From an uncultured Eubacteriales bacterium (GTDB taxonomy: Bacteria > Bacillota > Clostridia > TANB77 > CAG-508): 36,015 nt of DNA. Positions within the stretch are counted from its first letter, which is position 1, and every line of letters starts with the position of its first letter. The notes under the pieces were generated by a model. The model had not been told where the DNA came from and ran no database searches. It was given only the letters and a program-made list of their open reading frames with translations. Positions 9,742 to 13,048 of this stretch are shown piece after piece. A program made the position numbers and the translations under genes. The stretch covers positions 1 through 36,015 of the forward strand of contig CABTXJ010000001.1 in NCBI GenBank assembly GCA_902488785.1, given 5' to 3'.

Positions 9742-10593
9742 CTATCCTCCTCTTAAAAATTTACCAGATATATTTGTTTGTACTCTCATCCCACCTAATA
9801 AATCATTTGTAATTTGATTAGACTTTATCAATGCATATATAACTCCAATAAATATTAATTTAGAAGATATATTTGATGTTGCCGGTGTTATATATGTTAT
9901 TATCATAAGTATAATAGCTGCTATGTTCTGCATAAATAGTAATGCAACTATTGTTTTAAGCCAAGAATAAAATATATATTCTGTATTTTTTATTGCCTTA
10001 AATATTATCATTATTGGTGAAATTATAAGCATAATAATTACTAACATGTACCTATATGCATATTCAAATAACAATGTTACTAACCCAGAAGATATAAAAA
10101 TTTTTAATATACCATCAAAAGTTGTAAAATCTATACCATTTTCAAAATTATAAATATTAGATTGTAAATTTTTTACATATATGCTAAAAAAAGTTTCTTT
10201 ACTATATGGGTTACTATTTAATTTAAGTATTTCTTTAGTAAACAGTGAATTAATTTTTAAAAATGTTCCTAATATCTCTTCTATATTTGTAGCTACTATA
10301 ATTATTATTATCATTCTTATCAAAAATGTATAAGGATTTTCTTCAGATTTTAATGTAAGATGTGAAAGTAAGAATTTAAAAGAATAATAAATTATTATTC
10401 CAAAAGCAACAGACACCGCAATAGATATTGTTCCATCTACACTTTTGTTTCCCATTATCATTTTGACTGCTCCTTCATTGAAGATATTATCATCAATAAA
10501 TAAAAAATCATCAAGTAGCAAAAAAATATTATTATCAATAGAATTAACTAATTTTGATATTATTCCATTTAATATTCCTATTATATTTTCTAT
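9742..10593 (-). CDS. VirB6/TrbL-like polytopic membrane protein (start proposed at ATA 10593; track start is TTG 10521)
   Basis: At least five hydrophobic helices. The frame stays open upstream of TTG 10521 to the TAA-TAG of the preceding gene. AGGAGG (10604-10599) lies 5 nt before ATA 10593-10591, and there is no SD before TTG 10521. Confidence 0.5.
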   Translation of the reverse strand: MENIIGILNGIISKLVNSIDNNIFLLLDDFLFIDDNIFNEGAVKMIMGNKSVDGTISIAVSVAFGIIIYYSFKFLLSHLTLKSEENPYTFLIRMIIIIIVATNIEEILGTFLKINSLFTKEILKLNSNPYSKETFFSIYVKNLQSNIYNFENGIDFTTFDGILKIFISSGLVTLLFEYAYRYMLVIIMLIISPIMIIFKAIKNTEYIFYSWLKTIVALLFMQNIAAIILMIITYITPATSNISSKLIFIGVIYALIKSNQITNDLLGGMRVQTNISGKFLRGG

Positions 10594-10605
10594 ATTGTCC
10601 TCCTA

Positions 10606-10980
10606 TTATTTAAGCAATGTTTGTATAAACTCTAAAACAAATTTTGTGCTTAGTATAAATGCATATGAATATATAGTTCCTCTAATTAGTTTTTTAGATG
10701 TTCTTACTTTTTCTTCATCTCCAAAACTAAACTTTCTCATTATTAATCCTGTACTTATTGCAACTCCAGCTATTGGTGTAGCTACTAATAATATGTATGC
10801 CTGTATTCTTTCAAAAGCTTTTTGAATCTTTTTTATTAATTTTGGATTAGATTGTGCAAACCCATAATTTTGATTAATAATAATAAAACTTATTATTATT
10901 AATGATATTAATATTTTAATATTTATTTTCTTTAAAATTTTTTTTGACCTTTTTGCATTAATATTTTTTAATCTTCTTAT
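10606..10980 (-). CDS. VirB2/TrbC-like pilin candidate (signal peptide plus two hydrophobic helices), non-canonical ATA start
   Basis: Manual translation gives 124 open codons from the T4CP stop to TAA 10608-10606. AGGAGG 10994-10989 lies 8 nt before ATA 10980-10978. The first ATG/GTG/TTG in frame is codon 81. The ORF is absent from the track. Confidence 0.5.
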   Translation of the reverse strand: MRRLKNINAKRSKKILKKINIKILISLIIISFIIINQNYGFAQSNPKLIKKIQKAFERIQAYILLVATPIAGVAISTGLIMRKFSFGDEEKVRTSKKLIRGTIYSYAFILSTKFVLEFIQTLLK

Positions 10981-10992
10981 TTTATTTACCTC

Positions 10993-12831
10993 CTAATCTA
11001 AAAAATATGGAATCATATTTATTTTATTTACATATTTAATTTTATTTCCATCTGATATGAATCCTAGAGATTCAAATGTATTTAGTTCTTGTGTAAAAAA
11101 CTTATAATCAAATCTATAATCAAAATTGGAATATCTATTTATACTTTCATTTAAGCTAGAGTTATCTGAAATAAATTCTTTAGCTAAAAAACTATAATTT
11201 GCATCCTTAGAACTTTCTCCAATTGTAATTGATTTTCTTTCTTTTTCTTCTTTTCCTATTAATTTTTGCATTTTTTCAATAGTATATTCATCATCTGTTC
11301 TAAAACATATCTTATTAACTAAGCTTTGTATTATTACATTAGATGTATTTTCTTCTTTTAATGCATTTTTAATTGAAGTAAAACTTTGTGTGGATATAAC
11401 ATTTATACACATTGCTTCTCTTGATTGTGAATAAAAATCAGCATCATTTTTTGTCACATACTCTTGATATTCGTCACTAATGAATGCTGTTATTCTTTTT
11501 GGACCGCCTCTTCCTAATTGCTTAAGAACTTCTGATTGAAAATCTAATTTTAAATAACAAGCTATAACTTTAGAAATATCACCATATTCAGAAATATTCA
11601 TATTTAAAACAACTATTTTTCCTTCTTTAATTAATTCCTCAAATCCGTTGAAATTTATTTCTTCTTTTTTAGGTGAAAAATGTTTATTAATCTTATAATC
11701 TGTAATAAAAAGATTCGTTATTCTACTTATTTCAGCTCTTATTATATTTTTAGTTCTTGAATCTAATTTAATAAATTCTTTTTCATAAAAATTTATAAAG
11801 GTATTTAAGTCATATATAATCCTTTGTATTTCGTTTTTTTCTTTTTCTATTAATTTATTAGATTTAACCATTTTGATTTTTAATATATCAACTAACTTCT
11901 TTTTTGTTTCTATATAATATTCTTCATTCGAAATTATTTTATTTAATTCATCAAAATTTACATACCCATCATTATATATTCTTATATATTTTATAACTTC
12001 TGCAATTACAGTTTCTGCTTTATCTATCCAAAAACTTTCTGAATTATTTGGACTAAAAAGTAATAATATATATTTTAACCTTGAAGCTATGATTTTAGGG
12101 CTATATTCTTTTTTATCTAAAGGATTATAATAAATATTACTATTTAAACTAATTTCAATTAAGTCATCTTCTCTGCCTATATATTGGCACTCTTTTTTTA
12201 TAAAGTCATAATAATTACCTTTTACATCCAATACTAGCATACCTATTTTTTTACAATTATTAATCGATGAACATATACCAAACTTTAATAATTTTTTAGT
12301 TATTTGATAAACTGCTGAGCTAGTTTTACCAGATCCTATACTTCCTGTTATTAATATATTTTGAAAAAGGCCTTTTTCGTTTAAATATAAGGGATTATTA
12401 CATTTATCAAATCCCAATAATATTTTTAAATTTTCTTCTTGATCTATATTATTATTCTTTAAATCATTTTTTTTAATATTTTCTTTTTTCTTTTTGTTAC
12501 TTTTTATCTTTGATTTCTTTATTTTTATTTTTTTATTTTTTAAAACGCTTAATGTATATTCATCTTTATCTTTTATTTCAGTTGAAATTTCAAATTTTTT
12601 AAGTTTATATATTAAAGTTATTGAAATTAAAAAGCTAGAAATATATATATACTTATTTAAAAATTGCCACAATTTGGGATATTCTTTTATAACATCAAAA
12701 TTATTTATTGACCCTTTTATTTTAAGACTTTTTAGCTCTGATAATTTTCCAAAAAAATTATATTCTATTAAACAAATAAATAATGAATATAATATTGACT
12801 TTATTAAAGCTTTAAAATTAATGTTTTTCAT
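10993..12831 (-). CDS. virD4: Type IV coupling protein (VirD4/TraG/TraD family ATPase)
   Basis: It has two N-terminal TM helices, Walker A ITGSIGSGKTSS, VLDVKGNYY, Walker B AFISDEYQEY and the STQSF motif. The size and architecture fit a T4CP. Confidence 0.7.
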   Translation of the reverse strand: MKNINFKALIKSILYSLFICLIEYNFFGKLSELKSLKIKGSINNFDVIKEYPKLWQFLNKYIYISSFLISITLIYKLKKFEISTEIKDKDEYTLSVLKNKKIKIKKSKIKSNKKKKENIKKNDLKNNNIDQEENLKILLGFDKCNNPLYLNEKGLFQNILITGSIGSGKTSSAVYQITKKLLKFGICSSINNCKKIGMLVLDVKGNYYDFIKKECQYIGREDDLIEISLNSNIYYNPLDKKEYSPKIIASRLKYILLLFSPNNSESFWIDKAETVIAEVIKYIRIYNDGYVNFDELNKIISNEEYYIETKKKLVDILKIKMVKSNKLIEKEKNEIQRIIYDLNTFINFYEKEFIKLDSRTKNIIRAEISRITNLFITDYKINKHFSPKKEEINFNGFEELIKEGKIVVLNMNISEYGDISKVIACYLKLDFQSEVLKQLGRGGPKRITAFISDEYQEYVTKNDADFYSQSREAMCINVISTQSFTSIKNALKEENTSNVIIQSLVNKICFRTDDEYTIEKMQKLIGKEEKERKSITIGESSKDANYSFLAKEFISDNSSLNESINRYSNFDYRFDYKFFTQELNTFESLGFISDGNKIKYVNKINMIPYFLD

Positions 12832-13020: not shown

Positions 13021-13048
13021 ATTATACCAGCTTTTTCATTTTTGTCAA
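13021..13048 (-). promoter_or_regulatory. Consensus sigma-A promoter of T4SS module A
   Basis: On the minus strand, TTGACA (13048-13043), a 16-nt spacer and an extended -10 TGGTATAAT (TATAAT 13026-13021). Confidence 0.7.

Follow-up and report, generated by a model that had tools for sequence, protein, structure and literature searches.

An origin-proximal type IV secretion locus of uncultured gut Clostridia with a VirB2/TrbC-like pilin gene and a probable AUA start codon

Introduction

Pilins of the VirB2/TrbC class are small proteins in which a long leader, ending at a putative signal-peptidase site, precedes a pair of helices linked by a short charged loop. Their genes lie beside those for other type IV secretion system (T4SS) components, namely VirB6-like proteins, VirB4 and the type IV coupling protein (T4CP). 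Here, we describe a locus with all of these features. It lies within a 36,015-nucleotide stretch of DNA (the window) that covers positions 1 to 36,015 of contig CABTXJ010000001.1 (GenBank assembly GCA_902488785.1), from an uncultured Eubacteriales bacterium assigned by GTDB to Clostridia, TANB77, CAG-508. An initial annotation, made from the sequence alone, had proposed that a pilin gene with no ATG, GTG or TTG start lies on the minus strand between the T4CP and VirB6-like genes. We consider it probable that 10980..10606 is a functional VirB2/TrbC-class propilin gene which is translated from an AUA codon by means of a strong Shine-Dalgarno (SD) sequence, and which belongs to a vertically inherited T4SS of the monoderm type. 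Unlike the described VirB2/TrbC pilins, this one has a Clostridia host, sub-cut-off profile scores and no matching solved pilin.

The monoderm-type T4SSs of Patescibacteria have VirB2-like pilins, lack a relaxase and are located near dnaA, and the T4SS classes of Gram-positive bacteria have been described as being without VirB2 homologues (PMC12102498). The window resembles the Patescibacteria systems in its VirB2-like pilin, the absence of a recognised relaxase and its proximity to dnaA. The two differ in that pilin genes form arrays in Patescibacteria, whereas the Clostridia window has a single copy. With the conjugative T4SSs of Firmicutes (VirB4 of the CD1110 family; MPF_FA/FATA) the window shares VirB4 similarity and T4CP and VirB6/TrbL-like genes. 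Unlike those systems, it has no relaxase match in its open reading frames (ORFs), a fixed synteny, a split VirB4 and a VirB2-like pilin.

Conserved AUU or AUA start codons are, to our knowledge, confined in model bacteria to a small number of genes in each genome. Such codons are combined with an extended SD sequence in infC (AUU) of Escherichia coli and in infC (AUA), ccpN (AUA), cvfC1 (AUU) and citZ (AUA) of Staphylococcus aureus (PMC13009471), and ATA and ATT start variants have been described for rsbW of Listeria (PMC13068326). Ribosome profiling located the AUA and AUU starts of S. aureus, which have extended SD sequences, and their reporter output was ~10-30% of that with AUG; initiation in Firmicutes generally needs a strong SD sequence near the start codon (PMC13009471). 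In Listeria, the order of start efficiency is ATG > ATA > ATT (PMC13068326). The present locus is like these cases of attenuation in having a strong or extended, well-spaced SD sequence, a state that is conserved in relatives, and no canonical alternative. Those described so far concern individual genes with regulatory or metabolic roles, of which a genome has only a handful, whereas here several genes of one membrane machine are concerned. In the window these are u200, u242, the pilin gene and the VirB6-like gene; across species T4CP and VirB4 are added, and the habit spans >100 species-level genomes. The combination of a near-cognate start with a strong SD sequence is a known mechanism. No description of such starts being concentrated in a single machine throughout a clade was found in the literature searched.

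A conserved reading frame on the minus strand

The claimed frame is open throughout, from the T4CP stop codon (TAG, 10995-10993) to the TAA at 10608-10606, and the translation given in the initial annotation was reproduced. The stated length of 124 codons is a count from the ATA at 10980-10978 only; the whole stop-free run comprises 128 sense codons (10992..10609). As had been noted, there is no ATG, GTG or TTG before codon 81 (counted from this ATA), the first canonical codon being the ATG at 10740. The ORF list accordingly missed the gene and holds only a 44-residue ORF with an ATG start (10606..10740) in the pilin frame. From base composition, 0.004 stop-free runs of at least 128 codons are expected on the minus strand per window, and 200 shuffles gave a mean of 0.2 such runs with both strands summed.

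A protein search retrieved 1,664 homologues of the pilin, ~125 residues each, and alignment of the mature part revealed 31-35 invariant columns, including the motif KFSFGDEE. For close comparison we used L001, L002 and L083, which are independent assemblies of the window lineage from three other samples. Over the 84 C-terminal codons, the window and L002 are separated by 24 synonymous and 6 non-synonymous differences, giving a synonymous divergence (dS) of 0.66 and a ratio of non-synonymous to synonymous divergence (dN/dS) of 0.047; third codon positions hold 22 of these 30 differences. The comparison with L083 gave a dS of ~0.67 and a dN/dS of 0.135 in the mature pilin. Over its full length, the gene of the window is separated from that of L001 by 9.5 non-synonymous and 1.5 synonymous differences, and of these just 2 and 0, respectively, fall in the mature part. 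The differences thus lie mostly outside the mature part, and the n-region of the leader is fast-evolving. These analyses indicate that the pilin frame is a real protein-coding gene under purifying selection.

The plus-strand ORF at 10445..10825 had been interpreted as an antisense shadow of the pilin gene. In L002, its frame is interrupted by 3 stops within the 84 aligned codons of the mature region. Furthermore, in the comparison of the window with L002, dN/dS is lowest in the sense frame and higher in the frame of the plus-strand ORF. We therefore agree that this ORF is a shadow and not a gene.

The proposed ATA start codon of the pilin gene

The SD sequence of the pilin gene overlaps the T4CP stop codon and, with T10988 included, reads AGGAGGT (10994-10988), a 7-nt match to the anti-SD sequence. 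The ATA named in the initial annotation lies 8 nt past the AGGAGG, and both SD energy and conservation identify it as the best start. The duplex energy with the 16S rRNA 3' end is -11.6 kcal/mol for this ATA, compared with -2.4 for the ATT six codons on (10962-10960) and -4.1 for the ATG at codon 81. The latter falls inside the invariant mature part, and so no canonical start can give the conserved protein.

Alignment of orthologous loci revealed that the frame is intact and that the SD sequence and the ATA or ATT are kept among close relatives. L001 (96% identical; from DRR576531) has an identical TAGGAGGTAAATAAA-ATA. So does L002 (93% identical in the mature part; from SRR22356118), in which the following codons are wholly different. 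In L083 (85% identical; SD context AGGAGGTGA), AGGAGG is followed after 8 nt by ATT. The metagenome scan yielded no closer relatives of the window lineage, with none above 63% identity. In other species the pilin gene starts with ATG or TTG 4-9 nt after the SD sequence (58 ATG and 12 TTG in the genome set; 47 ATG and 10 TTG in the metagenome set). The sole exception outside the window lineage is the unrelated species L005, in which the pilin gene has an SD sequence and ATA and no canonical start for 67 codons. An apparent ATA start in L009 was rejected, being an ATA-ATG pair and hence canonical. Reassignment of ATA to methionine was ruled out, as ATA makes up 7.3% of codons in the window genes (ATT, 4.0%) and encodes the invariant Ile59 of the pilin.

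A number of observations weigh against initiation at this ATA. The two in-frame positions of the SD window would contain one or more near-cognate codons by chance with a probability of ~0.22 (22%), and the case for ATA therefore rests on its being conserved and necessary and not simply on its being there. The conservation of the SD sequence may in part be explained by its overlap with the T4CP coding sequence. A weak start is counter-intuitive for a high-copy pilin subunit, and the pilin start was canonical in 57/57 assigned cases of the 66 metagenome loci. In addition, L002 and L083 each have an in-frame, SD-less ATG exactly 8 codons past the ATA or ATT, at which translation may really begin in these two; the window and L001 would then have lost this ATG. 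Taking these points together with the conservation described above, we infer that AUA is the codon actually used for pilin initiation.

A real gene could also start at another non-canonical codon downstream, either ATT 10962-10960 or an ATT or ATA before the hydrophobic core, and so have a shorter but functional leader. Any start before residue ~22 would keep the basic n-region and the h-region, and the fast evolution of the n-region is compatible with this. Gene callers, moreover, choose the downstream ATG in L002 and L083 and a TTG at codon 12 in L001. We consider a downstream start unlikely, since the candidate codons lack an SD sequence, as the energies given above illustrate, and since the SD sequence, the 8-nt spacer and the ATA or ATT are kept as one element in four lineage members.

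Another explanation is that the window copy is a young pseudogene which has lost an ancestral ATG, the pilin no longer being made in this strain. This would account for the lack of a canonical start in a gene whose start is canonical in most species, and the window and L001 are too alike for selection to be measured between them. However, the SD sequence with ATA or ATT is common to L002 and L083, at synonymous distances at which the mature part is clearly constrained, and the frame is intact. The ATA of the neighbouring VirB6-like gene is also conserved in all four lineage members, and ATT and ATA starts occur in other genes of the machine across dozens of species. A pseudogene is on this evidence improbable, more so than a downstream start, and initiation at the ATA of a functional gene is preferred.

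Identity and architecture of the protein

The initial annotation assigned the product to the VirB2/TrbC family on the basis of its topology. At the level of the family, this assignment is supported by Pfam. When 14 aligned family members were scanned singly, PF18895 (T4SS_pilin) was matched by 14/14 at E<=0.05 (best, 3.7e-6) and PF04956 (TrbC/VirB2) by 5/14 (best, 2.3e-5). These were the top two families, the remainder being scattered single matches, and precomputed PF18895 or PF04956 matches exist for four homologue clusters. The window copy, on the other hand, falls below the curated cut-offs, scoring 19.3 bits against PF18895 (cut-off 26.6; E 1.2e-3) and 15.1 bits against PF04956 (cut-off 27.9; E 0.028), although these are its sole Pfam matches at E<=0.1. 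Strict profile membership of the window copy is therefore borderline.

Inspection of the primary structure points to a leader of 42 residues with a putative cleavage site after A42 and before Q43, in keeping with the basic n-region, hydrophobic core and GFA-Q site described initially. Residues 1-22, the n-region, carry a net charge of +10; they are followed by a 13-residue hydrophobic core, ILISLIIISFIII (23-35), and the c-region, NQNYGFA, ends in G-F-A ahead of Q43. A small residue, mostly A or T, is conserved at the same alignment column at the leader end of the homologues. The AlphaFold2 model, derived from 40 sequences and with a mean predicted local distance difference test score (pLDDT) of 77, contains a leader helix (residues 2-38) and two further helices (46-83 and 89-123) joined by the loop SFGDE (84-88), with a pLDDT of 83-93 in most 10-residue blocks of this hairpin. 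The proposed pair of helices with a short charged loop is thus present in the model. The description of both helices as hydrophobic holds for the first, which is strongly so; the second is just moderately hydrophobic and is not flagged at a Kyte-Doolittle threshold of >=1.6. As predicted for a pilin, the gene is positioned between the T4CP and VirB6-like genes, which was confirmed by Pfam analysis of the neighbours and by synteny. The protein is probably a VirB2/TrbC-class pilin and would work like one.

It could be argued instead that the gene encodes a conserved small T4SS membrane protein that is not a pilus subunit, for example an inner-membrane accessory protein, whose pilin matches reflect a shared two-helix topology. 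Several results count in favour of this and against a pilin. The window protein does not reach the Pfam cut-offs, and a solved pilin structure was found neither by sequence nor by fold. A PDB sequence search with the family profile gave nothing relevant (best E 0.46, unrelated proteins), and a Foldseek search of the PDB with the AlphaFold2 model gave no match at E<=0.001, the best pilus match being the conjugation-pilus chain 8dfu at an unusable E=4; helical hairpins discriminate poorly in fold searches. A tblastn search with the mature pilin found no homologue in 72,556 plasmids, and hence no tie to a known conjugative plasmid, and VirB2 homologues are said to be missing from the Gram-positive T4SS classes (PMC12102498). 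Against a non-pilin, T4SS_pilin and TrbC are the leading families across the homologues and their clusters. The long leader, cleavage-type site, hairpin and VirB6 adjacency are hallmarks of VirB2, and equivalent VirB2-like genes lie beside monoderm-type T4SS genes in Patescibacteria (PMC12102498). An accessory protein is thus about as improbable as a pseudogene, and a VirB2/TrbC-class pilin remains our preferred assignment.

NCBIfam has no family for the pilin, the VirB6-like protein, u102, u274, u83 or u266. A published 'conserved pilin' of the TANB77 clade was set aside because it concerns Tad-type pili, a different protein. One homologue, P0009 (172 residues, from a 562-base ENA contig), appears to carry an incomplete pilin-like unit in front of a whole one; it has two leader-like segments and two 'AFE.I..W' helices. 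This raises the possibility that some relatives have tandem or fused pilin genes.

Chromosomal location and inheritance

The window covers a chromosomal origin region, with rnpA, yidC and jag on one strand, dnaA, dnaN, recF and gyrB on the other, and a sign change of the GC skew. The T4SS genes occupy 6-23 kb of the window, 8-20 kb from dnaA, and are interspersed with gyrA, tadA, dnaX, ybaB, recR and genes for DnaD-like and DnaI-like proteins. The pilin gene lies between the T4CP and VirB6-like genes in ~146 related loci. The order T4CP-pilin-VirB6-like-u102-DnaD-like-DnaI-like is kept in 80/80 species-level genome loci (the L003-L082 set), all of which are metagenome-assembled genomes of uncultured gut Clostridia, and gyrA, u266, VirB4 and u200 are nearby where the flanks reach far enough. 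Profile scans of the window ORFs gave no match to a relaxase or integrase family. This result and the fixed synteny argue for a vertically inherited chromosomal T4SS and not an integrative and conjugative element. A mobile element of that kind was ruled out by the constant association with gyrA, DnaD-like, DnaI-like, tadA and dnaX in the 80 genomes. The DnaD/DnaI-like pair may be the cell's own or may have arrived with the T4SS.

Near-cognate start codons across the T4SS of the clade

The pilin gene is not alone in its start. The VirB6-like gene begins with AGGAGG-ACAAT-ATA GAA, in which the 5-nt spacer follows an SD sequence with a duplex energy of -10.2 kcal/mol. Its 'ATA GAA' is kept in the window, L001, L002 and L083, and orthologues have 'ATG GAA' or 'TTG GAA'. 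A misread ATG would be another explanation for the pilin ATA, as the two codons differ by one base and the stretch is AT-rich and of low complexity. Such a sequencing or assembly error is, however, highly improbable, since the same ATA is present in the independent assemblies L001 and L002 and the VirB6-like ATA, 390 nt downstream, is reproduced likewise.

In order to assign starts across species, we anchored start calls on SD energy and preferred canonical codons; plain counts of post-SD codons are confounded by spacer composition (ATT, TTT). In a first census, near-cognate codons accounted for 65/328 T4SS starts and 4/237 starts of neighbouring genes (Fisher p=1e-12). Two of the latter four, apparent ATA starts of DnaI-like genes, are in fact ATA-ATG pairs and canonical. 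The neighbouring-gene controls start almost uniformly with ATG (DnaD-like, 72/72; gyrA, 49/52; ybaB, 12/12; recR, 11/12).

The T4CP gene, which begins ~1.7-2 kb before the pilin gene in the loci L003-L082 and L084-L149, starts in most species with ATT and less often with ATA, ATC or CTG. The calls across species in the first census were ATT (33), ATA (4), ATC (2) or CTG (2), compared with TTG (8) and ATG (3), and the SD sequences had a very high mean strength of -12.4 kcal/mol. In many of these orthologues, an in-frame stop directly precedes the start and no ATG, GTG or TTG occurs until 70-148 codons into the frame. For VirB4, the C-terminal piece starts with ATA in 5/6 loci, with SD+ATA orthologues in L005, L009, L042, L055 and L078, and the N-terminal piece (u200) does so in 3/3. 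In u102 and u266, ATA, ATT or CTG occasionally stands precisely where orthologues have ATG.

We also took a wider census, blind to gene family, in which 1,114 open frames with a minimum length of 150 codons were examined. Among assigned starts, the share of near-cognate codons with a strong SD sequence was 73/96 for T4CP, 5/5 for VirB4 and 2/2 for u200, compared with 1/279 for housekeeping frames and 4/295 for other frames. The observation was replicated in the 66 metagenome loci, in which 12/18 T4CP starts were near-cognate and none of the 37 DnaD-like or 32 DnaI-like starts were. The census counts are not phylogenetically independent, which weakens their weight. These analyses show that near-cognate starts in this clade are specific to T4SS genes. 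The VirB6-like gene also has an unusually high share of TTG starts (40/81 in the genome set, 34/62 in the metagenome set), as does u102 (25/77 in the genome set), so weak starts in the operon reach beyond ATT and ATA to TTG.

Proposed mechanism and its implications

Initiation factor 3 (IF3) discriminates against near-cognate start codons, the classic case being the autoregulation of infC. In the mechanism we propose, 30S subunits held by the strong SD sequence, or ribosomes finishing T4CP, would start at the pilin AUA with initiator tRNA, at a fraction of the efficiency of AUG. The VirB6-like gene, 15 nt downstream, would be started likewise (AGGAGG, 5 nt, AUA), and the T4SS as a whole would be throttled at initiation. 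The AUA would then serve to attenuate or tune expression, and IF3 may be involved. The near-cognate codons could reflect either selected tuning or drift that is tolerated under AT mutation pressure in genes of low expression; that T4CP has kept ATT for so long speaks against any strong selection to remove it.

A further and rather doubtful possibility is that the T4SS subunits form a translational regulon, in which T4CP (AUU), both VirB4 pieces (AUA) and some of the pilin and VirB6-like genes (AUA) are gated jointly at initiation. Transcription would in that case run from consensus promoters, and the output and stoichiometry of the machine would follow the IF3 level or growth state. The regulated system would be an origin-proximal T4SS that has a VirB2-like pilus, lacks a relaxase and resembles the episymbiosis-linked T4SS of Patescibacteria.

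Whatever the purpose of these codons, gene callers limited to ATG, GTG and TTG drop or shorten such genes, and the window pilin is wholly uncalled. Canonical-only calling consequently leaves a clade-wide secretion machine of abundant uncultured gut Clostridia under-annotated. A whole machine with AUU and AUA starts in >100 species constitutes a natural test bed for control at the level of the start codon. With its VirB2-like pilin and lack of a relaxase, this monoderm-type T4SS beside oriC would also extend to Clostridia a layout so far known from Patescibacteria.

Neighbouring genes and operon layout

The features of the locus are listed in Table 1.

Table 1. Position and supporting evidence of features in the window
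Feature	Position	Strand	Evidence or remarks
VirB6/TrbL-like gene	9742..10604	-	PF04610, E 0.0019; SD AGGAGG 10604-10599, ATA 10593-10591
Antisense shadow ORF	10445..10825	+	Stops in L002; dN/dS comparison
Pilin stop codon TAA	10606..10608	-	Sequence
Mature pilin (putative), residues 43-124 (82 aa)	10609..10854	-	Alignment, AlphaFold2, Pfam, dN/dS
Leader peptide (putative), residues 1-42	10855..10980	-	Sequence inspection, family alignment, AlphaFold2
Proposed propilin initiation codon ATA	10978..10980	-	SD spacing, conservation
TAGGAGG: T4CP stop TAG (10995-10993) overlapping SD AGGAGG (10994-10989)	10989..10995	-	Identical in L001 and L002
T4CP, 612 aa (TrwB_AAD_bind, TraG-D_C)	10993..12831	-	Pfam; ATG start at 12831
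Predicted perfect consensus promoter TTGACA, 16 nt, TGgTATAAT	13021..13048	-	Pattern match only
u242, 242-aa protein with N-terminal hydrophobic segment	14028-14759	-	AGGAGG-CAT-ATT-ATA (14759/14756)
VirB4 ATPase piece, 596 aa	20687-22483	-	CD1110-family VirB4 model, 313.5 bits (cut-off 325)
VirB4 N-terminal piece, u200	22465-23067	-	Matches N-terminal part of VirB4 model; AAGGAGG-AAAAC-ATA 23067
Predicted second perfect promoter TTGACA/TATAAT, ahead of the other T4SS block	23093-23121	-	Pattern match only

The T4CP gene of the window itself has an ATG start (12831), with a weak SD sequence. The start of the VirB6-like gene is placed too late both in the ORF list (TTG 10521, by 24 codons) and in the public call for L001 (by 44 codons). 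VirB4 is split into two ORFs 10 kb from the pilin gene, a split that recurs in L042. The 596-residue ATPase piece has 27-29% identity to VirB4 of Firmicute conjugative plasmids, and its candidate starts are ATC 22483 (SD, -9.7 kcal/mol) and TTG 22477 (-6.6). The first ATG of u242 falls within the hydrophobic segment, and this protein likely starts at the ATT or ATA upstream; no u242 orthologues were present among the fetched loci.

The promoter predicted at 13048-13021 lies just past a strong terminator (13146-13118) and likely starts an operon of a small ORF, T4CP, the pilin gene, the VirB6-like gene and u102. No terminator was found between the T4CP, pilin and VirB6-like genes, and the SD sequence of the VirB6-like gene begins 2 nt past the pilin stop. 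Together with the overlap of the pilin SD sequence with the T4CP stop, this suggests that translation is coupled along the operon. The small ORF encodes a hydrophobic protein of 50 residues; it begins at TTG 12985 with its own SD sequence and stops 1 nt before the ATG of T4CP.

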